This document shows positions 5,454 to 29,496 of a stretch of DNA of 64,000 nt, piece after piece; position 1 is the first letter of the stretch, and each line of letters starts with the position of its first letter. Both the position numbers and the translations under genes were made by a program. This DNA comes from an uncultured virus (IMG/VR IMGVR_UViG_3300024999_000050) (Duplodnaviria; Heunggongvirae; Uroviricota; Caudoviricetes): the IMG/VR virus record IMGVR_UViG_3300024999_000050. The stretch is one strand, 5' to 3'. The notes under the pieces were generated by a model. That model was not told the origin of the DNA and made no database searches. It was given only the letters and a program-made list of their open reading frames with translations.

Positions 5454-8087
5454 TTAATACTTAACTTTCTTTTTTTTCACTTTTGCAAACTTTATTTTCT
5501 TTTTCAATCCAAATGATTTTGCTATTTGTTTTGCTAATTTGTAGGCCAACAAAGTAGGAACTCCGTTTCCTACTACTTTATATTGTGCTGATAAACTTAT
5601 CTTTTCTTTCTTATCTGTTACCCCTATTGTTTCATCGGGAAATACATAAAAATCGGGAACAGACTGAATTCTTAAACATTCTCTAACACTAAACCTTCTA
5701 GGTTTGTTCGGGTGAAGCTGGCAAGCTGCTTTTCCCAAAATAGAAGAAGTTATAGTGTTAGCTGGTTTGTCTCCTTTTATTCTTTTCAAGAATGTTGTCT
5801 TACCTCCAGGACTATTTATAGCATTTCCCATGAATTTTTCTTGATCTTTCTTGGGTAAGTCTTTCCAATTTCCACCTGGAGGTATTTTGTGAGCAAATTC
5901 TTTTTCATCATTTCTTAAACTATATCCAGTACAATTCGGAATATAGTTTGGATGGATACTTTCACATCTTTTCTTAGTATCTATGGTTGGACTCGGTTTA
6001 AACCAATCTGTAGTTCTATTTGATTTATCGTAACTCCAACCAAAATTAACATTATCGAAACAAACATGATTATCATGTTTGTTTATCAAAAATTGATGAG
6101 GGTTATTTCCAACATTATTCGTCAAAGTGAAAGACGGTTTATCCATATCAAAGATTCTTACATTTTCTTTTCCGGAAGAACTCATTTTCTTAGTTTTCAT
6201 TCTTTCTATAACGTAATCCGGAAGATCTCCTAGACTTGTATTATTTGGATAAAACAATCCATAGGGAACCCCTCTACTAAAGTTAGCTTGGATAGTTCCC
6301 CCTGGTTCAGCCATATTTTTAGGTCTATGTTTACTTTTCATTCTTCTTGGATCTCTATGAATATATTCTAATGCTTTTTCTGATAATTCTTTTACTTCGT
6401 GATTGAAAATTGGTTCAGGTAAATCCCCTATTACATCTCTGAGAACAAGTCTTTCATTTTCTGGGACCGGTTCAGGCCAGCTAAACTTTACTCTTTGATC
6501 TTTTCGTATCCCAACAATAAAAACTCTTTCTCTTACTTGGGCTACTCCATGTTCCCAGGAATTAATAACTTTCCAAAAAGTTTTATATCCTAGTTTCCTA
6601 AACATTTTTAACAACTTTTTAAAAGTATGAATATGTTTCTTACTTACTAAACCTTTTACGTTCTCAAAAAGAAACCATTTAGGTTTCAGAGTTTTTATTT
6701 GATGTAAATAATTGAAAACAAGAATCCCTCTTACTCCGTTTTCCCCTTCTCCGTTTCCTGCATGAGAAAAATCTTGACAATTATGAACTGCTATTAGAGG
6801 CAAACAATAAGAGTTATCTTTTTCAACTTCTAAATTATAAACTGTTAAACTTTTAACATATTTCTTTTTAATCTTATCTATCTTAAAAAATACATAATCA
6901 TCTGTAAATTCCACACAACGACCTTGATTTGTTCCTGTTTTTAATTCATAACAATTTTTAGTGTTAACTATTCTACCTTCTATAATTGCTGTACCTGCCT
7001 TATTTCCTAAAGTTAAAGAATATAGTCTTCTTTCTGTTTTTAATAATAATCTTTGAATACCTTCCAATAATTTTATAGAAACAGATGAAAAACTCGTATA
7101 ACCATTTGAAATACTACCATCACCCTTAAAGTAGCCCTCTATCAAAGATTTACCTAATTCTATGGGTAAATTTTGGACAAATTCGGGAATAATTTTATCT
7201 ACGGCTGTATGTCCAGTAGTAAATTGTTTTACAAAGAGCCATAACTCTCGGTTTGTTATATTTATTCTCATACACGTTCTCATATTAGATATATGATATT
7301 TAAGATTTAGTTTTTTAAGAATTCTGCAAATAAATTTCTTTTTCTTTTTATTTGCAGCAAAAGAAATCCCATAATACTTTCTCATTTTATTTTTATTTCT
7401 TTTATGTTTATCTCTAGTCCATCCTTCTGCCAACCAATAACCAATAAGTTTCCAAAAATCTATCGAATCTAAAGGTAAATTTGTTTCTCTTAACTCTGAA
7501 TAGTTTTGATTGATTATATTAGTGTAAACTATTTGATTCGGCAATTCAGATTTTTTATTAATTGGGAAACCAACATAATCTGTTCTTTCTAAATCTTTTA
7601 CCTCTACCCACCCTCTTTTCGTATAAAAAGGATGTTCCGGAGTTACTCTAATAGGTATTCTATAATACTTACAAACAATATTATATAAATATCCATTATT
7701 TTTTCTTTCCATAGTTTTAATTACTTTTTTATATCTTCCCTTATGAGTTAATACTTTTTCTCCTGTTTTTATATTCTCTATTTCTTTTAATCCTTCTTTG
7801 GTTATTATTCTTTGCCCTGCCGGGAAACATGGAGGTCCACCTACAATTCCATCTACTTTACCAATATAACCTTCTGGTATTTTTAATTTAGAAATATCAG
7901 TTTTCTCAATATGATCCCCAATATTAAATTCATAAGCCTTTACAGCGTTTACATCAAAATCATAAGCTTTGACTATTTTAAAATGACCCTCTAAACAGAA
8001 TCCTAAATCCAATAATCCACCACCAGAAAATAAACTTAGTATCTTATGTTTTCCTCTCACTTTTGTAAACTTAATTTTCTTCATCAC
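5454..8087 (-). CDS. DNA (cytosine-5) methyltransferase with intein, probably multispecific
   Basis: Motifs LFSGGG, GGPP|CQDFS (split by intein), FENV, QVRERVF, RRFSVRECLRIQ, VGNGVP; long variable region. Confidence 0.95.
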   Translation of the reverse strand: MMKKIKFTKVRGKHKILSLFSGGGLLDLGFCLEGHFKIVKAYDFDVNAVKAYEFNIGDHIEKTDISKLKIPEGYIGKVDGIVGGPPCFPAGQRIITKEGLKEIENIKTGEKVLTHKGRYKKVIKTMERKNNGYLYNIVCKYYRIPIRVTPEHPFYTKRGWVEVKDLERTDYVGFPINKKSELPNQIVYTNIINQNYSELRETNLPLDSIDFWKLIGYWLAEGWTRDKHKRNKNKMRKYYGISFAANKKKKKFICRILKKLNLKYHISNMRTCMRINITNRELWLFVKQFTTGHTAVDKIIPEFVQNLPIELGKSLIEGYFKGDGSISNGYTSFSSVSIKLLEGIQRLLLKTERRLYSLTLGNKAGTAIIEGRIVNTKNCYELKTGTNQGRCVEFTDDYVFFKIDKIKKKYVKSLTVYNLEVEKDNSYCLPLIAVHNCQDFSHAGNGEGENGVRGILVFNYLHQIKTLKPKWFLFENVKGLVSKKHIHTFKKLLKMFRKLGYKTFWKVINSWEHGVAQVRERVFIVGIRKDQRVKFSWPEPVPENERLVLRDVIGDLPEPIFNHEVKELSEKALEYIHRDPRRMKSKHRPKNMAEPGGTIQANFSRGVPYGLFYPNNTSLGDLPDYVIERMKTKKMSSSGKENVRIFDMDKPSFTLTNNVGNNPHQFLINKHDNHVCFDNVNFGWSYDKSNRTTDWFKPSPTIDTKKRCESIHPNYIPNCTGYSLRNDEKEFAHKIPPGGNWKDLPKKDQEKFMGNAINSPGGKTTFLKRIKGDKPANTITSSILGKAACQLHPNKPRRFSVRECLRIQSVPDFYVFPDETIGVTDKKEKISLSAQYKVVGNGVPTLLAYKLAKQIAKSFGLKKKIKFAKVKKKKVKY
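6780..7829 (-). mobile_element. 350-aa intein with LAGLIDADG homing endonuclease
   Basis: Starts CFPAG, block B TPEHPF, IGYWLAEG and IEGYFKGDG motifs, ends VYNLEV...VHN followed by C. Confidence 0.93.
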
Positions 8088-19618: not shown

Positions 19619-20281
19619 TATTTCACCCTCTTTTTAAGTTTCATTATCTGACTAATAAAAATAAGATTTTTTCCTCTAAAACCTTTACCATATCTTCCAA
19701 CTAATGTTCTATAATTTATTCCTGTTAATTCTGAAACCTCTATTAATGTTCTTCTTTTTCCTTTATAAATAATAAAAACATTAGTTCTTTTATTTCTATT
19801 ATTTTGTTTTTTAGTTATCCACCTACAATTATCTGGAGAATAACCCTTATCGTTATTTCTACGATCTAATTCTAGACTTTTATCAAAACCATTATTTAAA
19901 CACCATTCTCTAAATTTCATAAAATCTTTATTCCACTCTTTGCAAATTTTTATACCTCTACTACCATAATTCTTATAAGAAGTATTGTTTTTATTATTAC
20001 ATCTATCTTTTATATCAATCCATATTTTATATAAATAAGTACCACTCATCATATGAGTTCTTACCATTTCTAAATTATAACAACCACATGATTTTGTCTT
20101 TCCATTTTTCAAAGAATATCCTAAAACAGAAACTTTTGTTCCACATTTACATTTACACAACCAAACAATATGAAGACTTTGTCTTTTCTTTTTCTTTTTC
20201 AAAACTAAAAGTCTCCCAAATTTTTGACCAGTTAAATCTATAAATTTACCCAATAATTATTCCTCCTATCAATATTTCACC
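19613..20281. mobile_element. HNH cassette bounded by a 15-bp direct repeat
   Basis: TATCAATATTTCACC at 19613-19627 and 20267-20281. Confidence 0.7.
19615..20253 (-). CDS. Free-standing HNH-type homing endonuclease
   Basis: DLTGQKFGRL, WLCKCKCG, KSCGC, LDRRNNDKGYSPDNCRW. Confidence 0.88.
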   Translation of the reverse strand: MGKFIDLTGQKFGRLLVLKKKKKRQSLHIVWLCKCKCGTKVSVLGYSLKNGKTKSCGCYNLEMVRTHMMSGTYLYKIWIDIKDRCNNKNNTSYKNYGSRGIKICKEWNKDFMKFREWCLNNGFDKSLELDRRNNDKGYSPDNCRWITKKQNNRNKRTNVFIIYKGKRRTLIEVSELTGINYRTLVGRYGKGFRGKNLIFISQIMKLKKRVKY

Positions 20282-21225
20282 TTCCTCGGCATAGTTTTAA
20301 TACCTACATATTTACATACATCTTTTAATCCTAATTTGTTCATACAGAATTTCCATAGACTTGGATGTGTTGAATACATTCTTTGAAAACGATTTAATCC
20401 TCTTTTTTGCTCTAAATGTGTTCCAAAAAGACAGAAAACACAACCAGTTCTATCATATCCCATATCATATATTCTTGAATATGGTACATTAAAAATTCTA
20501 ATATACTCCCAAACATCCTCTTCTGTCCAGAAAGAAATCGGAATACTGAAAGGTCTGTCTAAATTAAAAGCATTACAGCCATTTCTTATATAATTATTCA
20601 TCCTAAATCTACTTTCAGAAACCATTGAACCTATAAACGGTTTTCTACCTTGTTCTTTCTCATAAATTTTAAATGGTCTTTTCTTCATAACTTCACAACA
20701 AGCATCACTTATTTTAAATGGAGCGTCTTTTAAATATTGCCACTTCAAAGGGACCATCCCGACATTAAATTTTCCATTTCTACTTGGTTCTAATCCCATT
20801 CTCAAGGATATTGTTCTTTTATTATTCTCTGTTGGATTTTGTAGATCATGTATTTTTCTAGCGTTTTCTTTACTAATCACTGGATAGCCGTATCTATCTA
20901 AAATCTCTTTAAAGTGTAATTTGGGTTAAACCCAAATTACATTATCTGTCTCTCTAACAAATGATACTATCTCAGGAAATTCCAAACCAGTGTTAGAAAA
21001 CACGGCAGGAACATTTGGATAAATACTTCTTACTAGATGATTTAGAACGGTACTGTCCTTACCCCCACTAAAAGAAATATAAACATTTCCGTTGTAATAC
21101 TCATACCATTGAATTATTCTCTGGATAGACATATTTATCTTAATTTCTAAAGGAAGTTTCAATCTTTCTTTTAATTCCCATACTGAAACACCTGTATTTT
21201 TAGCATATTTTATTTTCTTAGACAA
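20269..21225 (-). pseudogene. PAPS-reductase-family (PP-loop) gene interrupted by one in-frame TAA at 20926-20928
   Basis: SFSGGKDS, NTGLEFPE in the first part; CCEVMKK, RTGCVFC in the second; both in one frame: VIWV*PKLHFKEILDRYGYPVISK. Confidence 0.85.
20915..20941. repeat. 27-bp palindrome (13-bp arms, 1-nt centre) centred on the stop codon
   Basis: TGTAATTTGGGTT-A-AACCCAAATTACA. Confidence 0.95.
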
Positions 21226-21229
21226 CTAA

Positions 21230-23398
21230 TCAACTCCAACCAAAAGTAGAATATGAATCATACTTTTTAATTTTGATAATATTTTCAAACGATGTACTAA
21301 TTTCAGATCTATGACTTATAATAAATATTTGCTTGATACCTAAATTTTTCAGCATCACTTTTTTTATTAATTTCAAAACTAATTCCTGATTTATACTGTC
21401 TAAATTACTAAAGATTTCGTCTAAAATCACAAAGTCTACCTTACTCCCACTTTTATTTCTTTTCAAATTAGATATAGCTAACCGAATAGCTAAACTAAGT
21501 ATTACTTTAAGTCCTCCAGAAGCTTGTGTGAACTCCATTTCAGACTCTCCATTATAAAACCTCATAGATAGTTCGTCTTTCTTCCGTTTACCCCTCTCAC
21601 AACTACACTCTGGACATTGTTTCTGCCTACTCTCAAATAGACATCCACAAACCGGACAATTCTTTTCCCAGTCGTTCAATTCTTTTACCGAAGAGAATTC
21701 CAGAGACATATCTGTTTCTAATTTGTCCAATATTTTGTTTACCTGAATTTCTATTTCTTCGAATGCTGACTCAAACTGGAAAGACTTTATTCCGTCTTTC
21801 CCGAATGCAAATTGTAGAAACTGATATTGTTGTAATTCTTCTTTTAATTCCTGTAGACTTTCTTCTAGGTCTGGAATCTTTTTAGACTCTTCTTTTATGT
21901 TTGATATTTGATTTTTAAGACTACCGATTTCCTCTGTTAATGAATTTATTTTTTGCCTAAGTTTCTTAATATCTTTTTGGTTTTCCTTAAACTTGTTTTC
22001 TATTTCCTCTTGCTTGTCATCCTCCAGGAGAGATAACTTTTCTTCTATTTCTTCTAACTTGGATTTGTGATCTTTTATTAGAGAGATGTTTTTCTTAATT
22101 TTTATTGAACAATTTTTGATTTGCTTTTCTTTGTCGGACAGAGTAGTAATTGAAATATTTTCAATAGTTTTTAACTGACCTTTTATGTATCTCAGATTAT
22201 TAAGATGTTTTTCTGTTTCTGATAATTCTCTCTTTACATCATCTAACTTTTCGATCATTTTGTCTTCTATTCCGTAATACTCTTTTATTTCTTTGTTCAA
22301 TTCATTCAACATATCATCAATAGAGATGTATTTACATTTTTCATTTTTGTAAGGACAGACTCCGTTTGAGTCTGCTATTTTTCTAATCTCTTTGTTTATT
22401 CTGGTAATAGAGTTTTTGGCTGTTAAATATTTCTCTTGGTATTTTTCAAGCCGTGTTTTTAATTCTTCATACCAGGATGATATTTTGTCATATTCCTTTA
22501 GTTCAGATTTCATCTTTTTAATCTTTTTCTGAGTATTTAATCCTGTCTGATACCTTTCTTCTATTTCCTCTTTCTTTTCAGATAATTCCTTGTTGTCTTG
22601 TTTTAGATCCTCTATAATGTTCAGAATATGGTTATATTCAGTTTGAAGGTAGTCGTCGTCACCCATATCCTTTATCTTCTTTAATTCAGCCTTTAACTGG
22701 CTTTCTACACCTGTTAGACCTTCTAAGTCAAACGATAATAATTCCTTTTCTTCTCTTAAATCTTTCAAAGATGATTTCAATTCATCTAAATTGTCTTTCT
22801 TTTTTTGAATTATGTTTATTTCATAATTAACTTCATTTATTACTTTTTCCAATCCTTTAATAAACTCTTTTGTTGTTTCTAAGTAGTCGTCCCAATGAGA
22901 ATTATTTATCCATCTAGAAAACTTTTCTTTTAATTTACTGCTTGTGGATGTAGCTATTCCGTGAATATCTCCTTGAAGGAAAAAGGATGTGTTTATAAAG
23001 TCTTCATACTCTAAACCTGTTAATTCGTTTAGGTATTCTTGGACATCTTTTTTATGTTCACCTTCGTATCCTTCAACTTCTAAAATTAAATCACCAGATA
23101 ATGATTTTCCTCTTGTTATTGATATCTGGGAACCGTCTTCTAATAAGAAAGTTCCTTTCACTATCATATCTTCTGAGGCGTTGTTATGAATTAGATCTTT
23201 GTCTGATTTGTTTCTGTGTTTTCCGTAAAGTAGGTAAGTTATCATTTCTATAAAACTAGATTTCCCTGACCAGTTACTTCTTGATTTCTGACCTTTCCAT
23301 TCTCCGATAATAGAAATAACCCCTTGTTGGGGTATCTCTATTTCATTCCAGTCCTTGAATGGACCGAAGTTTTGGCAGCCTATTGTTTGTAGGATCAT
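21230..23398 (-). CDS. sbcC: SbcC/Rad50-like SMC ATPase
   Basis: NWSGKSS, FFLQG, long coiled coil, ASGG, VILDE, IISH. Confidence 0.92.
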   Translation of the reverse strand: MILQTIGCQNFGPFKDWNEIEIPQQGVISIIGEWKGQKSRSNWSGKSSFIEMITYLLYGKHRNKSDKDLIHNNASEDMIVKGTFLLEDGSQISITRGKSLSGDLILEVEGYEGEHKKDVQEYLNELTGLEYEDFINTSFFLQGDIHGIATSTSSKLKEKFSRWINNSHWDDYLETTKEFIKGLEKVINEVNYEINIIQKKKDNLDELKSSLKDLREEKELLSFDLEGLTGVESQLKAELKKIKDMGDDDYLQTEYNHILNIIEDLKQDNKELSEKKEEIEERYQTGLNTQKKIKKMKSELKEYDKISSWYEELKTRLEKYQEKYLTAKNSITRINKEIRKIADSNGVCPYKNEKCKYISIDDMLNELNKEIKEYYGIEDKMIEKLDDVKRELSETEKHLNNLRYIKGQLKTIENISITTLSDKEKQIKNCSIKIKKNISLIKDHKSKLEEIEEKLSLLEDDKQEEIENKFKENQKDIKKLRQKINSLTEEIGSLKNQISNIKEESKKIPDLEESLQELKEELQQYQFLQFAFGKDGIKSFQFESAFEEIEIQVNKILDKLETDMSLEFSSVKELNDWEKNCPVCGCLFESRQKQCPECSCERGKRKKDELSMRFYNGESEMEFTQASGGLKVILSLAIRLAISNLKRNKSGSKVDFVILDEIFSNLDSINQELVLKLIKKVMLKNLGIKQIFIISHRSEISTSFENIIKIKKYDSYSTFGWS

Positions 23399-23401
23399 AT
23401 T

Positions 23402-24004
23402 CTAGTACTTCACCTTCTTTTTGCGGTTAAATCCTCTTATATTACATTTGCATTCTCTGCCCCAATGATGCCAGCCAGGAACATCACTTAATCTAGAAAA
23501 TAACTCTATTTTCTTTACTTCATCACCCATAAGCTTATCAATTCTTCTTCTTACTTCTTTCGGCTTACTACTATGCTTATCTCCTATTTTTTCTATGACT
23601 ACAGAGTGGACAGCCCCAGAAACTCTTTTAGGTTTACCTTTAACTCCAATAAGACAAACTTCTGAATTAGAGCGAGTTTTAGTTCCCATTCCCCAGAATA
23701 ATGATTTAGATTTCTTATTAAGTTTAACCCATACGAATCCTACAGTCTTATACTCAAAACCCCATGACCTGATTACGTCCATAGCCTCTTCTAAGTGGGG
23801 AAAGGTAATCCATAAAAAAAGGATACAGTTTTCGTCTGCTATTTCTCTGACTGGTAGTTTCTTAACTTCTTCAATATTCATTACGTTATATTCTTTACGG
23901 CAGCCTCGTTTAGCTTTCTTTCCGTCTTTCGTTTTCTTATAGTTGTAATTATTGTATTGCCACGGAGGATCGGCGTATATTACGCCGTATTTATGGTTTT
24001 TCAT
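23402..24004 (-). CDS. MT-A70 family adenine methyltransferase
   Basis: IYADPPW, LFLW, WGFEYKT, HSSKP, IELFSR. Confidence 0.93.
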   Translation of the reverse strand: MKNHKYGVIYADPPWQYNNYNYKKTKDGKKAKRGCRKEYNVMNIEEVKKLPVREIADENCILFLWITFPHLEEAMDVIRSWGFEYKTVGFVWVKLNKKSKSLFWGMGTKTRSNSEVCLIGVKGKPKRVSGAVHSVVIEKIGDKHSSKPKEVRRRIDKLMGDEVKKIELFSRLSDVPGWHHWGRECKCNIRGFNRKKKVKY

Positions 24005-24272
24005 TCTTGTTTAGACTTTCTAATAATAAAAATGGATTTACTTTTTCAAATCTATGAAATTTATGATCGTAGTTTGTTATGTAAGTCATAAACATTTCTA
24101 GAGGTCTCTTGTATGGTTCTTTATTTATTGGAGAATTTATTTCTGTGTAACTTACAAGTCTTTCTTTGTTTTCTGTATGATTTCCAACGTCTAAAACAAC
24201 GTAAATATTTTTAGTTTTGAAATGCCTATATAATTCTCCAGGTCTAGGTTCTTCTTTAAGTCTAGTTATCAA
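23991..24272 (-). CDS. DUF1653-family protein
   Basis: YRHFK, HTE, RPLEMF, RFE. Confidence 0.85.
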   Translation of the reverse strand: MITRLKEEPRPGELYRHFKTKNIYVVLDVGNHTENKERLVSYTEINSPINKEPYKRPLEMFMTYITNYDHKFHRFEKVNPFLLLESLNKNEKP

Positions 24273-24286
24273 ATAAATTCATCTCC

Positions 24287-25099
24287 TTATATATTTTTAA
24301 TAATTTTCATTCCACGTTTCATATTTTCAATAGCTAAGTCTGCCGGATGATAATTAACGAACTTATCTTCCTTATAATATATCTTTTCCCACTTTTCTAA
24401 TTCCATATTTATTACTTTTCCCAAAGTTGATTGTATTTCATAGGTTGATGAGTCTACACTGATTCTTAATTTATTAGCGTTTCGATATCCCATCATTTCA
24501 AAGATATTTAAGTAATATCTTATCTCCTTTAATATATCGAAAGTGGCTACACCGAATATATGTATCTGTTTTATTCCTTTGTTTAGAATTAGAGGTATTC
24601 CAAACTTAAAGATGTCTAAAAGTTTCTTTCTAACACCTTTATCTTTCCCAGCTAGAGCATTACCCCCAATTCCTAGACAATCTTTTCGATCCATCATTTT
24701 CAATGTTTCTATAATGCAATAAATATACTCTTTAATCGTATTTCCTTGACAGGTTAATACTAGCTGCCTAGGACTTAATTCCTCTCTTCTTCTTATCAAG
24801 AATTTATTAGCTTTCAATGTTTCTTCTACATTTCCTATGTAATCGTAAGAAACAATTCTTTGAGATATAAAATTCATTTTCTTTTCATGCTTTAATTGTC
24901 TTGCTAAAGCATCTTTGAAAGATAACCGATCCTCTTTTCCTCTGTCTTGAAATGCTCCTGAGTCCAATAATATACTTGCTTTGGGATTGTCCATCCAAAC
25001 TTTATAGTGAGGACTAATACAAATATGTTTGCAAAAGAATTCTTGTCTTAAAAGTTTTCCAGACATCTTATTTCCTGTCTTAGAAATATAAAGTATCAA
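24287..25099 (-). CDS. TGT/DpdA-like base-exchange transglycosylase
   Basis: LLDSGAFQ, YD, CQG, GIGG, HIFGV, VDSS in TGT motif order. Confidence 0.78.
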   Translation of the reverse strand: MILYISKTGNKMSGKLLRQEFFCKHICISPHYKVWMDNPKASILLDSGAFQDRGKEDRLSFKDALARQLKHEKKMNFISQRIVSYDYIGNVEETLKANKFLIRRREELSPRQLVLTCQGNTIKEYIYCIIETLKMMDRKDCLGIGGNALAGKDKGVRKKLLDIFKFGIPLILNKGIKQIHIFGVATFDILKEIRYYLNIFEMMGYRNANKLRISVDSSTYEIQSTLGKVINMELEKWEKIYYKEDKFVNYHPADLAIENMKRGMKIIKNI

Positions 25100-25102
25100 C
25101 TT

Positions 25103-25540
25103 TTAAAAACCCTCTGTTTTATAAAAGTTTAGCTGCTGGCCTATTCCTAAACCTTGCAATGGTACATTACACTTGATTCCGTGTTTTTCTAGTAGTTTGA
25201 TTAAATGTACTCTGTATAGCTTTCCAGCATAAATATCCACATATTTTAGATTAGGATGTTTTTCTATTATTTCTTTACATACTAAGTTAGCCCAATCTTT
25301 TCTTTCTTTGTTTGTTAAATTGAATAACGATTTATCATATGGTTTAATTATCTTGTCTGGATCAAGTAGTCCATGTTTAGCTGAAAGAATGTAGTATATA
25401 CTAAAACTTGATTCGACATGATTTCTTGCTTTTGTAAATAGTATCGAAGGAGAATATAGTATTCTTGCTTTACACTCCATATTCAATTTAGATTTTGAGC
25501 AACTTATTAACGCTATTTTCATTACAGAATCACCTATCAT
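25103..25540 (-). CDS. DUF6884-like protein
   Basis: LISCSKSK, ARILY, ILSAKHGLL, PYD, AGKLY, PLQGLGIGQQL; start probably MKIAL. Confidence 0.78.
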   Translation of the reverse strand: MIGDSVMKIALISCSKSKLNMECKARILYSPSILFTKARNHVESSFSIYYILSAKHGLLDPDKIIKPYDKSLFNLTNKERKDWANLVCKEIIEKHPNLKYVDIYAGKLYRVHLIKLLEKHGIKCNVPLQGLGIGQQLNFYKTEGF

Positions 25541-25542
25541 TC

Positions 25543-25929
25543 TTATTCCCCCTTAATAATAGCTTTACCCTTTTTTATTATTTCCTTTGAAAAAGAAGGG
25601 TTTTTAGCTTCTACAAATTTTCTTAACGCTTTAATTGGATCTTCATTTGCTGTTAGATTTTTAATCCTTACCATTTTCGTTTTTACTATGGTAGGATGTA
25701 TTTTAGTATGATATTTTGCATGTTTCTTTATTTTTTCTATGACTAAACTTAAATCTAATCTATGAACATCATTCTCCAGGATATAAATTTTGAATGATAC
25801 ATTAGCATCTTTTATATCTTTTATTTTGATGTGTTCATGTAGGCTTTCTATTTTGTCCGGTTCATTAGTTAAATCAAATGTTAACTGAACATGCCGGAGG
25901 TAATTTACCTTTCTGAATTTTACGGACAT
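25543..25929 (-). CDS. Probable detached C-terminal part of SbcD/Mre11
   Basis: Sequence fits capping domain plus Rad50-binding helices missing from 26155-26910. Confidence 0.55.
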   Translation of the reverse strand: MSVKFRKVNYLRHVQLTFDLTNEPDKIESLHEHIKIKDIKDANVSFKIYILENDVHRLDLSLVIEKIKKHAKYHTKIHPTIVKTKMVRIKNLTANEDPIKALRKFVEAKNPSFSKEIIKKGKAIIKGE

Positions 25930-26162
25930 AAACTAAAAAACATAATTCTTGAAGCTTCTTTTAACATTCTTTCAGATATTTTTTCAGCCATTTTATCTAA
26001 CTGTTTCTGAATCATTTCTTGAGGAGTAAGATTCATAGCCTCACATAAAACAACTTTAAAAGTCAACTTGTCGCTTAAACTTATATTTTCTTCACCTTTA
26101 AAAAACCCACATTTATCTTTTATACACCCTATTATACCATAAGGGCATTTTGTGTTAATCAT
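25920..26162 (-). CDS. Hypothetical protein between the two sbcD parts
   Basis: GGAGGTG RBS inside sbcD 3' end; CPY..C...C motif. Confidence 0.65.
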   Translation of the reverse strand: MINTKCPYGIIGCIKDKCGFFKGEENISLSDKLTFKVVLCEAMNLTPQEMIQKQLDKMAEKISERMLKEASRIMFFSLCP

Positions 26163-26910
26163 TTAACTTCACCTCCACATAACATTTAATATCGTTTCTC
26201 TCTCCAAAGTCCATACATTCTATAGAACCTGGGATTATTATGTTTCCAAACATTTGAGGTTTATGAATATGTCCATTTATTATATATTTTATTCTTTCGT
26301 TGTTAAGTAAAAATTCTGGAAATACTTTTTCATCATCTATATATTCTTCCTCTGAGAAATTTAACTTTACTCCGCTAATCATATGGTGAGAAAGAACAAT
26401 TGTTGGGCTATGCAAATAAATAATATAGTCTCTGATTAATCTTAGACATTCTTTCTTGATGTACTTTTTAACACTATCGAAACCTAATTCTTTAACCCTT
26501 GCTTTTGTCATATGGGGAATACATATGACATTTAGTTTTAGTTTCTCTATTAATTCTACTTTATCTACTATCGAAACATTCTCATATCCAACAGCTTGTA
26601 GTGGTTCTAGAGCATGTTTCTTGCCCTTCTGAGAGATAGTTTCATGGTTTCCTACTATTACTACTGTAGGAACCATGTTACGTTCTAATTTGTTAAGTAG
26701 TTTAATAGCTTCGGAGATTAGTTTAGGAGTAGGATTGTTTCCGTCAAACATATCTCCGGCCATTAGGTAAACTACTTTATTTCCTTTTCTTTTTAATAAT
26801 GTCGCTCTATCTATCGACTGTCTTACTGATTTTATTATGTTTGGAGTTCTGTCTATCTCTCCTGGCTTTCCTAAATGCCAGTCTGAAGATATTATTAAGT
26901 AGTCTCCCAT
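26155..26910 (-). CDS. sbcD: SbcD/Mre11 metallophosphoesterase nuclease domain
   Basis: SDWHLG, AGDMFD, VGNHE, SHH, GHIHKPQ, PGS..DFGE. Confidence 0.9.
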   Translation of the reverse strand: MGDYLIISSDWHLGKPGEIDRTPNIIKSVRQSIDRATLLKRKGNKVVYLMAGDMFDGNNPTPKLISEAIKLLNKLERNMVPTVVIVGNHETISQKGKKHALEPLQAVGYENVSIVDKVELIEKLKLNVICIPHMTKARVKELGFDSVKKYIKKECLRLIRDYIIYLHSPTIVLSHHMISGVKLNFSEEEYIDDEKVFPEFLLNNERIKYIINGHIHKPQMFGNIIIPGSIECMDFGERNDIKCYVEVKLND

Positions 26911-27188
26911 TATATCTTATTCAACACTTCTAATTCAAAGTTGAATTCTGAACCTTGATAATAAAGCTGATAATATCCATCAATTATTCTACAAGTAACT
27001 CTATCATCAAACTTTATAAATTTCTCATCATCTTTGATTCTCTTTAATAAGTTTCTGAATTTCTTAATGGGTATCTCAATATTTATTCTAAATAATTCAG
27101 AAGTTTTTTTACTATAAACAAAAAGTATAATATCTGTTTTTCTTATTTCTTGATAAACACCAACTACGCCGTATTTTATAATATTCAT
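26910..27188 (-). CDS. Hypothetical protein
   Basis: 92-aa ORF coupled to neighbours. Confidence 0.7.
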   Translation of the reverse strand: MNIIKYGVVGVYQEIRKTDIILFVYSKKTSELFRINIEIPIKKFRNLLKRIKDDEKFIKFDDRVTCRIIDGYYQLYYQGSEFNFELEVLNKI

Positions 27189-27192
27189 TTTA

Positions 27193-28326
27193 TCACCCTT
27201 TCAATCTATTCCTGATATAGTCTTCGCTTGAATTAATTAAATTAACGAACTCTTTTTCATTCTTACCGAAATAAACTTTGAATGTTTCTAATTTCATGGG
27301 TAACATACCTCTTGTAGCAATTGTTATAACTCTTATCATATTCAAATTATGCTTTGTCCATTTATCACAAACATAAGTCCTATCTAAATGATTTACTGGA
27401 ATGTATTTCATAGGGAAACCAGAAATTCTTAAATCTAATTCCTTACTTAATTCTACTATTTCTCTACATCTATAGTAAAATTCTTCGGGAGTATCTTTCC
27501 AATTATAAAGAATATAAGAACTAAAAGTCTTTATTCCAAACTTCGCAGCTAGTTTTATAGCATTTTGGAAATATACATCTTCTTTCATAGAATCGAATGA
27601 AAATCTTAATGGGTAAATGTTCACTTTTGAAACCAATTTGGCTATTTCTTTGTTGAATAATCTACAATCTGTTCCTTGATTAAAGTCTACATATCTTTGC
27701 CGATTATTCATTTTAGCCCCTTTATGAAATCCTAATGAAATTAATTCCTCAATTATCCTATCAAATTTACTACTTGCAAAATCATTATTACCCCAAAGCT
27801 GAAGATGTTGTCTTGTTTCGTCTATCTGAGGTTTTATTGGGATGTAGTCAATGTAATTTGGTTCTAAATATTTTACACCGCAGAAACCACATTTTCTTAT
27901 ACATCCTTTTGTGGCTGTTGCTATTGAATAGTTTAAATTAAATATACTGTAATCAATCTTAGATCTGTCTACTTCTTCATAATACAATCCTTGATGATAG
28001 GTTATTTTGTTAGGAGAATATTTGACAAGAGATTCAATTAGTTCTGGAGCAAAAGTTGTTAAATGTCCACCAACTATTAATTCATCTGTTCTGAATTTAT
28101 AGGTATTAATTGCATCTATTACTTTTCTGTATTCCCAGGTAAAAAGTGATGTTATATAAATTTTATCATAATATTTTAACTTACTTCTTATTCCTTCTGT
28201 ATATTCAACAATATCTCCTAAACCCTTATGATAAGTACTTAATTTCATTAAAGCTAAAGGTATGAATTTGAATACTGGTTTAACAAGAAGGATCTTTTCT
28301 TTTCTGGGTATCTTTATTTTCTTCAA
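27193..28326 (-). CDS. Radical SAM protein with N-terminal B12-binding-like Rossmann domain
   Basis: KGCIRKCGFC (Cx3Cx2C); PLALMKLSTYHK, ITSLFTW, VGG, DFNQG. Confidence 0.88.
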   Translation of the reverse strand: MKKIKIPRKEKILLVKPVFKFIPLALMKLSTYHKGLGDIVEYTEGIRSKLKYYDKIYITSLFTWEYRKVIDAINTYKFRTDELIVGGHLTTFAPELIESLVKYSPNKITYHQGLYYEEVDRSKIDYSIFNLNYSIATATKGCIRKCGFCGVKYLEPNYIDYIPIKPQIDETRQHLQLWGNNDFASSKFDRIIEELISLGFHKGAKMNNRQRYVDFNQGTDCRLFNKEIAKLVSKVNIYPLRFSFDSMKEDVYFQNAIKLAAKFGIKTFSSYILYNWKDTPEEFYYRCREIVELSKELDLRISGFPMKYIPVNHLDRTYVCDKWTKHNLNMIRVITIATRGMLPMKLETFKVYFGKNEKEFVNLINSSEDYIRNRLKG

Positions 28327-29496
28327 CTACTTAACCTTCTTTTTCTTTTTTGATTCTTCTATCTTATCTATTTCATATGTACCTGCAAAATTATTATCCA
28401 GAGCATTTTTTAACTTTTTAAATAATTCTTCCTTCTCAAATAACTCTCTTATTAACTCCGGTTCTCCATGATATTTTTCTCCAAACAATCTTACATCTGA
28501 ACCGTTTTTCTTAATAATTTCTCTTTCAATTGCTTCTGTTACCGCTTCTCTTACCAAATCTAAACCTAAAGGAATCATTCCTTTTCCGTTGCTTGTATAG
28601 AAATAACCTTCTTCATCTGATATTCCTATTCGATTCTTTCTAATCGTAAATTTATGTCTCTTCCCTACTCTTTTTTCTTTATCCTTGGAACCTTCTTTTA
28701 TTGCCCCAGAAGGTGTTACTCTAACAGATATTGTTGAATAAAATGGGATAGCCTCTCCACCGGTCCCTTTAAATTTCTCTTCAAACTTTCCAGCATCCAT
28801 CTTTGATCTTTCTTGCATAATAAATATTAGTAGTATATTTGTACTTTCTGTTATATCATCAGAACCTATTATAGAATTAGCTAATTGAATCCACTGACTA
28901 TTTAATGCTGCCTGTTTACCAAAGTTAGCTTTACCTACAGCTTCTTTGGTTTTAATTAATTTGAATATTTCTTCTGGAACTAAAGCTGTTACTGAATCTA
29001 CAACTATACATAGACATTTATTTTTAGGAATCTTTCCTTCTTTTCTTTTTTCCGCAAAATTTAACATCCAATAGTCTACATTGTTTGAACAGTCTTCATG
29101 TGTTTTAGGCCTGAAATACATAACTTTTCCGTAATTTTCTTCACCTAAAAGAATTCTATACCAGGATTTCTTTTCTTCTGTTTCGTGAACTCCCTTTTCT
29201 GCATCAACAAAAATACCAGTATGTCCTTCTTCAACGAATCCTTTTAAAATTGCTTGAGCTAATGCTGTTTTGCCTCCGTATGTTGGCCCCTGGAGTACCA
29301 TAGTACAAGATGTTGGTATGGCTCCACCGAAAGCCCTGTTAGCTGAACTAAAAATACATTTAACCATTTGAATACATTTTTTCTGATCCATTTTTCCGGC
29401 ACGATTCTTTGCATAATCCCCGGCTATTAGGGAAAGGATATCAACAGGCTCATTTGAATCTTTTTTAGACTTTTTATTAACTTTTTCTTTTGCCAA
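28327..29496 (-). CDS. recA: RecA-like recombinase
   Basis: GPTYGGKT, FVDAE, IVVDSVTAL, QER, GGEAIPFY, KNR. Confidence 0.9.
   Translation of the reverse strand: MAKEKVNKKSKKDSNEPVDILSLIAGDYAKNRAGKMDQKKCIQMVKCIFSSANRAFGGAIPTSCTMVLQGPTYGGKTALAQAILKGFVEEGHTGIFVDAEKGVHETEEKKSWYRILLGEENYGKVMYFRPKTHEDCSNNVDYWMLNFAEKRKEGKIPKNKCLCIVVDSVTALVPEEIFKLIKTKEAVGKANFGKQAALNSQWIQLANSIIGSDDITESTNILLIFIMQERSKMDAGKFEEKFKGTGGEAIPFYSTISVRVTPSGAIKEGSKDKEKRVGKRHKFTIRKNRIGISDEEGYFYTSNGKGMIPLGLDLVREAVTEAIEREIIKKNGSDVRLFGEKYHGEPELIRELFEKEELFKKLKNALDNNFAGTYEIDKIEESKKKKKVK

Follow-up and report, generated by a model that had tools for sequence, protein, structure and literature searches.

A TGT-fold gene coupled to a DUF6884 gene

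We have analyzed 64,000 nucleotides of DNA from an uncultured Caudoviricetes virus (IMG/VR record IMGVR_UViG_3300024999_000050), hereafter the window, in which two adjacent genes on the minus strand code for a divergent, zinc-less TGT/DpdA-like transglycosylase of 270 amino acids (aa) (24287..25099) and for a stand-alone DUF6884 protein of 145 aa (25103..25540) that resembles, by sequence and model, cysteine enzymes of the DpdC/ArcS-core type. An earlier sequence-only reading of the interval 23402..28326 had placed both genes, together with a radical SAM gene, an MT-A70 gene and a PP-loop PAPS-reductase-like gene, in one operon for an undescribed DNA base-modification pathway in which a base would be inserted and then elaborated. 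All the open reading frames (ORFs) that it named exist on the minus strand where it had placed them, and the direct coupling of TGT and DUF6884 was borne out, with 3 bases between the two. This coupling is limited to these two ORFs, and the module consists of two genes, not five.

The 270-aa protein had no match in Pfam, PHROGs or PADLOC and nothing meaningful in NCBIfam (the Pfam set used may lack PF23859, DpdA). A tblastn search against 50,697 phage records found no match either, and PDB sequence searches with the protein and with its profile gave nothing useful. The AF2 model had a pLDDT of 95.8. In a Foldseek search of the PDB with this model, TGTs accounted for all 49 rows among the matches listed, and the VIA Z scores were 20.1 for arcTGT, 19.9 for Salmonella DpdA, 19.1 for bTGT, 17.4 for QTRT2 and 16.3 for Cap10, the first non-TGT barrel appearing at 13.9. 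The VIA superposition aligned 232-237 residues with a root-mean-square deviation (rmsd) of 2.8 and shows the (beta/alpha)8 TGT barrel. The ESM Atlas was concordant, the protein falling with the TGT and DpdA clusters. Thus the TGT fold first guessed from the letters is confirmed by model, Foldseek and VIA.

The search for homologues gave 53 of about the same length; clustering at 50% gave 164 representatives, and there are longer homologues of 900-1270 aa that show ParB or no domains. The window protein was aligned with 49 of the 53, four partial sequences being left out. All 50 aligned sequences keep D46-S-G-A, Y85-D86, Q118-G119, G145-G146, H180, G183 and D216, and none has the zinc motif C-x-C-x2-C, which as part of the structural site C-x-C-x2-C...H is reported to be required in bTGT, arcTGT and bacterial DpdA (PMC10164549, PMC5699537). 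The catalytic residues given for DpdA are D95, F99, D130 and D256 (Gedara 2023, PMC10164549), and to these D46, F50, D86 and D216 correspond by motif order and spacing. The bTGT of Z. mobilis has the aspartates D102, D156 and D280 and a guanine pocket with Q203 and G230 (PMC5699537). The three aspartates and the guanine pocket are kept in our protein (D46, D86, D216, Q118, G146), in a register taken from the alignment with phage 9g DpdA and not from a residue-level structure superposition.

That alignment, of the TGT profile with 9g DpdA, extended over 220 columns at 22% (E 1e-4) with the aspartates in register; the match to phiST DpdA3 was weaker. In a test against five sequences the profile reached E values of 1e-5 and 4e-5 to DpdA1 (9g) and DpdA3 (phiST), respectively. 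Across five characterised DpdA phages the TGT profile matched one, at E 0.007. Comparisons by hhalign with the TGTs of phiFN37, HRTV-29 and MED16 stayed below significance, so these are assigned to other lineages. Within the reach of these comparisons the 270-aa protein would be DpdA-like yet fall in none of the subfamilies DpdA1-4, and it looks like a phage DpdA subfamily not previously described.

The partner protein belongs to DUF6884 (Pfam PF21818, E 1.6e-41, 142 bits against a cut-off of 30). The N-terminal SC-x-K-x-K motif noticed before is indeed there, as S-C-S-K-S-K at residues 13-18. C14, K18 and L52-S-A are invariant among the relatives, which gives the family motifs C-x3-K and L-S-A-x2-G, and C-x3-K is found in all 36 TGT-linked DUF6884 loci. 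The model (pLDDT 93.1) matched in VIA, above all else, YaaA (Z 9.6) and AF0587 (Z 9.2, rmsd 3.6 over 118 residues), the latter of which we take to be an ArcS homologue. All five close relatives tested match the PADLOC model of DpdC weakly (E 7e-9 to 0.06), and in PADLOC the window protein matches only PDC-M57A, over its full length (E 3e-31). From the ArcS motif PC-x3-KPY-x2-S-x2-H just C-x3-K is kept, and PF17884 (DUF5591) gave no match at E 0.1. A DpdC sequence for residue comparison was sought in one E. coli chromosome and in 301 genomes of one phylum (at E 1e-15, where the control was negative too), and none was found.

The literature on these families points in several directions. The Pfam paper describes DUF6884 as YaaA-related, with the two motifs above, proposes a role in repair, and reports that B. 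subtilis YfjM, a DUF6884 protein, binds abasic and RNA-base lesions (PMC11701544). GATOR-GC labels DUF6884 'e.g. dpdC' in bacterial islands (10.1101/2025.02.24.639861), and DpdC is elsewhere termed DUF328 (PMC5699537, PMC12839542). DpdC alone, without DpdA or DpdB, converts dPreQ0 to dADG. The ArcS2 of phage nt-1 (DUF5591 core), expressed with DpdA2 in E. coli, yields dG+ without RaSEA, and STSV-2, whose ArcS2 matches YaaA in HHpred, contains dCDG (Cui 2023, NAR, and its supplement); Thermococcus ArcS is reported to depend on RaSEA (PMC11298593). It appears that a single fold unites YaaA, DpdC, DUF6884 and the ArcS core, and the enzymes known from this group work on the nitrile of preQ0. The product of the DUF6884 protein is not readable from its sequence.

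Gene neighbourhoods of the TGT family and of DUF6884

Three scans recovered 94 TGT loci, of which 93 were scored and grouped in 55 clusters at 90% identity. With one near-identical strain set aside, the rest were divided, after inspection, by a limit near 40% identity, which gave 18 close and 36 distant clusters (a fragment of 41% identity went to the distant set). Five of the 18 close clusters cover less than 4 kb of DNA. The identity of the marker genes was checked with Pfam and NCBIfam. DUF6884 lay at most 250 bases from the TGT in 14 of the 18 close clusters, the queuosine-precursor (preQ0) transporter Vut_1 was present in 12, and queD-queE-queC in two. Altogether, 17 of the 18 had DUF6884, Vut_1 or queDEC within about 2 kb, and the eighteenth has less than 200 bases of flank. 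QueC is also encoded in all four of the tested cellular genomes carrying this TGT family (four of five named).

This linkage with preQ0 synthesis or uptake holds in the relatives, not in the window phage. We have used for this comparison an overlapping record (G001), 100% identical to the window across the overlap, which contributes 32.6 kb more; in total 96.6 kb were examined of a genome of about 120 kb, a size taken from the longest contig with an identical radical SAM protein. The earlier remark that the window lacks folE, queD, queE and queC was upheld: neither these genes nor Vut_1 were found with Pfam among its 66 ORFs or among 20 selected ORFs of G001. The proposed search for que genes in the rest of the genome likewise brought up none in the further 32.6 kb, and no ORF of at least 60 aa in the 96.6 kb gave a blastp match to the QueC, QueD, QueE or transporter markers.

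In the reverse direction, viral contigs scanned for DUF6884 yielded 189 matches, the best 80 of which formed 63 clusters. A TGT was located within 2 kb, or fused, in 32 of the 63, a fraction biased upward because TGT-linked members went into the query and the same loci seeded the marker profiles. Seven of the 32 belong to the TGT family of the window, 20 match the phrog_887 profile (which also recognises 9g DpdA, E 1e-36), three are of a longer TGT type, one is a TGT-DUF6884 fusion (L105), and HRTV-29 was counted by annotation. Hence 25 of the 32 come from TGT lineages other than that of the window, and without the seven same-family clusters the count is 25 of 56. Complete folE-queD-queE-queC-TGT operons enclose DUF6884 in ten of the 63 clusters, often between queC and queD and with a QueC of normal length. 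Neither an amidotransferase nor QueF was seen in these ten operons; a QueF match in one contig turned out to be the FolE gene and was rejected. Among cultured phages 14 records had a DUF6884 match, and six neighbourhoods were examined. In phiFN37, TGT, DUF6884 and transporter stand in a row, and in HRTV-29 a YaaA-like gene adjoins DpdA; the neighbourhoods in BDU-MI-1, Kronos and Naby have no TGT. The co-occurrence check therefore came out in favour of TGT with DUF6884, and not of the radical SAM and MT-A70 genes (see below).

Several loci deserve mention in their own right. Myxococcus phage Mx4 (L099:4001-5608) carries DUF6884 joined to a DndB/DpdB-like domain that has a DGQQR motif; the 8 kb examined there contain no TGT, and as deposited the gene starts too late to include the catalytic N-terminus. 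In another contig (L112:4325-7853) three genes stand in a row, for QueC, for a DUF6884 fusion of 420 aa and for a SIR2-like protein, again with no TGT, and this row is possibly a defence system. In a relative that bears queDEC, the TGT gene is directly followed by a Mom-family adenine-modification gene (L001:8930-9682). Two clusters contain two TGT genes each, a tandem pair of DpdA1-like genes in one (L133:2566-4338) and, in the other, a short DpdA1-like remnant upstream of the gene of this TGT family (L020:2232-4018), which suggests TGT exchange within the cassette.

The distant clusters include a sister clade of the TGT (30-38% identity; L014, L016, L044, L053, L058, L059, L062 and others) whose neighbourhood lacks DUF6884, the transporter and que genes. 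There, 21 of the 36 clusters have an adjoining UvrD helicase and 13 of the 36 have a PD-(D/E)XK nuclease; the two occur together in 12 of the 17 clusters of at least 4 kb and in none of the 18 close phage clusters. A small AbrB-like gene is often present, and the genomes are often archaeal. The arrangement looks like a compact Dpd-like defence cassette, and the company of UvrD and a PD-(D/E)XK nuclease points to DNA as the target.

The surrounding genes and the phage genome

The window is part of the genome of a temperate, siphovirus-like phage with a G+C content of about 32%. It contains genes for a serine recombinase, a repressor, a DnaE polymerase, a primase, a helicase and a holin, while portal and tail genes are found on G001. 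Its DNA occurs in groundwater metagenomes of one study, with no RNA dataset among those listed. The host would be a member of the Bacillota, judging by named TGT homologues from Paenibacillus and Aneurinibacillus. A promoter scan was uninformative (51 sites against 54.5 expected by chance). Elsewhere in the window (5454-8087), an intein with a LAGLIDADG domain interrupts a C5 cytosine DNA methyltransferase.

In the direction of transcription, on the minus strand, the order is RecA (28327-29496), radical SAM, a 92-aa ORF, the SbcD nuclease domain, ORFs of 80 and 128 aa, DUF6884, the 270-aa TGT, DUF1653, MT-A70, SbcC (21230-23398), the PAPS-reductase-like gene, a 212-aa ORF and a RuvC-like gene. 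Between radical SAM and DUF6884 there thus come the 92-aa ORF, the SbcD nuclease and the ORFs of 80 and 128 aa, four in all. The DUF1653 gene (23991..24272, minus strand; Pfam E 2.5e-13), which sits between TGT and MT-A70, is probably outside the module; it has 63% identity in a near-identical strain whose TGT is 100% identical. All the candidate genes lie inside a RecA-SbcD-SbcC-RuvC recombination block and nearly all window genes share one strand, so their assignment to a single operon carries little weight: the identities given to the radical SAM, MT-A70 and PAPS-reductase-like genes hold, their grouping does not. As context, SbcD (minus strand, nuclease domain at 26155-26910; NCBIfam TIGR00619, E 3.4e-16), the recombination partner of SbcC, terminates after its nuclease domain, and the cysteine-rich 80-aa ORF and the 128-aa ORF come next with overlapping ends, the three together spanning 25543..26910. 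Judged by eye, the 128-aa ORF, which has no match of its own, may be the C-terminal part of SbcD, which would make SbcD a split gene.

The radical SAM gene (27193..28326, minus strand) matches phrog_9298 (E 9e-45) and has an N-terminal B12-binding-like region. Its family, with 1150 homologues, is common in phages and has no conserved neighbour among the markers tested. It had been seen as an analogue of RaSEA, which our data do not support. NCBIfam, which presumably includes a RaSEA model, gave no RaSEA match at E 0.1, and a PDB sequence search gave nothing useful. No radical SAM of this family is near the TGT in the 18 close clusters, and on whole contigs it is present in one of five TGT-bearing viral contigs, about 42 kb from the TGT. 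Starting from the radical SAM itself, the best 80 of 87 viral loci formed 61 clusters (843 kb, same markers; the five closest relatives, of 58-62% identity, are left out of the counts), and neither TGT nor DUF6884 was near in any of the 61. The contrast with the DUF6884 linkage has a Fisher p of 2e-12, with clusters that are not fully independent. In four cultured phages that carry the radical SAM, DUF6884 is missing from the whole genome and no TGT is annotated nearby.

The MT-A70 gene (23402..24004, minus strand) codes for a DNA methyltransferase (Pfam E 1.4e-30; PADLOC MTase_II) found near the TGT in none of the 18 close clusters and near DUF6884 in one of 63. The PAPS-reductase-like PP-loop gene (20269..21225, minus strand) is present as claimed, although beyond SbcC, outside the interval, and broken by a single in-frame TAA (20926-20928). 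Contigs from three runs, all belonging to one study, have the same TAA letters; two of these runs may have yielded the window DNA. A PAPS-reductase-like gene lies 2-4 kb off in two of the 18 close clusters (three with weak blastp matches). The pathway roles once given to these two genes find no support, and we judge the radical SAM, MT-A70 and PP-loop genes to be neighbours with no part in the module. A recent private pairing of the radical SAM with it is conceivable but unlikely.

Proposed function and relation to known systems

We consider the chances about even that TGT and DUF6884 together write a 7-deazaguanine mark into the phage DNA by swapping in host preQ0 and converting it to dADG. 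Taken separately, insertion of a 7-deazaguanine into DNA by the 270-aa protein is very probable, an alteration of the inserted base by DUF6884 is probable, and dADG as the final base may or may not prove right. In such a mechanism the 270-aa enzyme would flip guanine out of replicated phage DNA, D216 would attack the sugar, giving a covalent intermediate, and preQ0 (7-cyano-7-deazaguanine) would be installed with the help of D46. DUF6884 would then bind the modified DNA, C14 and K18 would attack the nitrile, and its hydration to the amide, as performed by bacterial DpdC, would give dADG and make the exchange irreversible. The precursor would be supplied by the host, as que genes are missing from the 96.6 kb examined and the relatives have a preQ0 transporter or queDEC. 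By analogy with known DpdA phages, the mark would shield virion DNA from host restriction enzymes. Of the earlier idea of insertion followed by elaboration, the pairing in 14 of 18 close clusters, the transporter or queDEC, the YaaA/AF0587 fold and C-x3-K speak for the two steps; the radical SAM step finds no support.

A number of observations weigh against this interpretation. At pocket position 148, 49 of the 50 aligned TGTs have Ala (32) or Cys (17), as in the preQ1-accepting bTGT, and Val is reported there in the preQ0-specific arcTGT and DpdA (PMC10164549, PMC5699537), which argues against strict preQ0 specificity. DUF6884 is absent from all six characterised DpdA phages (the five plus MED16), and since low levels of dADG are reported in 7-11, nt-1, HVTV-1 and MED16 (PMC6884629, PMC8306585), DUF6884 is not needed for it. 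The repair role suggested in the Pfam paper (PMC11701544) and the phage ArcS2 product, which is dG+ and not dADG (Cui 2023, NAR), tell in the same direction. The window protein has no PADLOC DpdC match of its own, its relatives cover about 60 of 312 DpdC positions, and the AF0587 fold match is level with that to YaaA. At least two of the 18 close clusters lack DUF6884 despite long flanks. Half of the viral DUF6884 clusters (31/63) and four of the six cultured-phage neighbourhoods are without a TGT, so DUF6884 has other roles too. We found no published experiment on any DUF6884-bearing phage, and about 23 kb of the genome lie outside the DNA examined.

The alternatives differ in what follows the insertion step or in its target. 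DUF6884 could act like phage ArcS2, with a Cys-thioimidate resolved by ammonia or an amine (to dG+, or a lysine or polyamine adduct) or hydrolysed to dCDG; the final base would not be dADG and may be new. We hold this as possible but less likely. C-x3-K is common to DUF6884 and the ArcS motif PC-x3-KPY, the presumed ArcS homologue AF0587 ties with YaaA, the ArcS2 findings on nt-1 and STSV-2 described above fit, and DUF6884 occupies the post-preQ0 slot of que operons; however, the remaining P-Y-x2-S-x2-H is not kept as such, DUF5591 is not matched, and sequence matches favour DpdC and YaaA. It is doubtful, going further, that DUF6884 is a phage-wide tailoring enzyme making a base not yet seen in DNA (e.g., an amine or amino-acid amidine adduct) and that the 270-aa protein is a fifth DpdA subfamily replacing a large share of guanine like DpdA3, with host precursor alone and no DpdB. 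The TGT might also write dPreQ0 or dPreQ1 by itself, with DUF6884 as a non-catalytic or repair helper binding abasic sites or flipped bases from the exchange. The lesion binding of YfjM, the viral DUF6884 clusters without TGT, the TGT relatives that retain only the transporter and the bTGT-like pocket residue would all suit such a helper, but the invariance of C14 and K18, C-x3-K in all 36 TGT-linked loci and the several operons that enclose DUF6884 tightly between queC and queD make it unlikely.

We regard it as very unlikely that the TGT, instead of acting on DNA, targets tRNA or some other RNA or, in the manner of Cap10, binds a deazaguanylated protein. The fold scores of the tRNA enzymes and DpdA are within one Z unit, Cap10 also lacks the zinc site (10.1101/2025.04.06.647259), and a precursor transporter would be equally useful for tRNA modification. 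Against this, the protein has neither a zinc subdomain nor a PUA domain, there are no tRNA genes in the window, QueA, QueG, QueH and a CD-NTase were not seen, the partner has a DNA-binding fold (PMC11701544), and the closest named sequences are those of phage DpdA1 and DpdA3. Finally, a serial action of TGT, DUF6884 and radical SAM on the model of ArcTGT, ArcS and RaSEA, with the MT-A70 or PP-loop protein possibly taking part, seems highly improbable: the radical SAM is on the same strand at 1.65 kb and DUF6884 resembles ArcS in motif and possibly in fold, but the co-occurrence counts (0/18 and 0/61 for radical SAM; 1/63), the single distant case in five contigs, the four cultured phages, the lack of a RaSEA match and the broken PP-loop gene all disagree.

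If DUF6884 is the dADG enzyme, a reaction would be assigned to a domain now tied to repair, the base predicted for many phages now listed as 'dPreQ0 only' or 'DpdA only' would change, and an ATPase-free two-gene tool for writing a modified base into DNA would be at hand. Part of the literature on phage 7-deazaguanine calls the formation of phage dADG unresolved, and the surveys name Gat-QueC, QueF, ArcS2, DpdL, DpdM and DpdN as tailoring enzymes, with no DpdC-like enzyme in the portion accessible to us (Cui 2023, NAR). We found no paper on DUF6884 or DpdC in phages, on this TGT subfamily or on the pairing, subscription papers and bioRxiv supplements being outside the search. DpdA counts come out too low, because the subfamily is invisible to the versions of Pfam, PHROGs, NCBIfam and PADLOC used.

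Among known systems, phage DpdA1 (Enterobacteria phage 9g) and DpdA3 (Cellulophaga phage phiST, CGPG_00065) resemble the 270-aa protein in the TGT barrel, the aspartate register, the reduced zinc site, a size of about 260-320 aa and a phage location amid DNA-metabolism genes. They differ in that the sequence likeness is remote, in the Val of the pocket loop, and in having Gat-QueC, QueF, ArcS2 or DpdL as partners, where the window phage has DUF6884 and no que genes. The same DUF6884 domain, over its full length, is found in PADLOC PDC-M57A and B. subtilis YfjM, which are assigned to candidate defence and to lesion binding; a TGT link was not found in the descriptions consulted. The archaeosine pathway (ArcTGT, ArcS and RaSEA) and phage ArcS2 (DUF5591) have in common with the module that a TGT step precedes a C-x3-K enzyme whose fold may be related, whereas the window TGT lacks PUA and tRNA-binding domains, its partner is DUF6884 and not DUF5591, and the radical SAM is of another family and does not co-occur. 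The bacterial DpdA, DpdB and DpdC of Salmonella Montevideo (PDB 7UI4) match in DpdA fold (Z 19.9), in the aspartates and in a DUF328/DUF6884-type partner; the window module is phage-borne, has no zinc insertion, DpdB ATPase or DpdD-K (no dpdB or dpdD-K domains among the window ORFs), and its partner has 145 aa against about 310 for DpdC. With DpdA plus DpdC or DpdA plus ArcS2 as closer models, the module is a variant of described chemistry and not the undescribed pathway once proposed; what appears new here is the TGT subfamily and the routine pairing, in phages, of DpdA with a stand-alone DUF6884.

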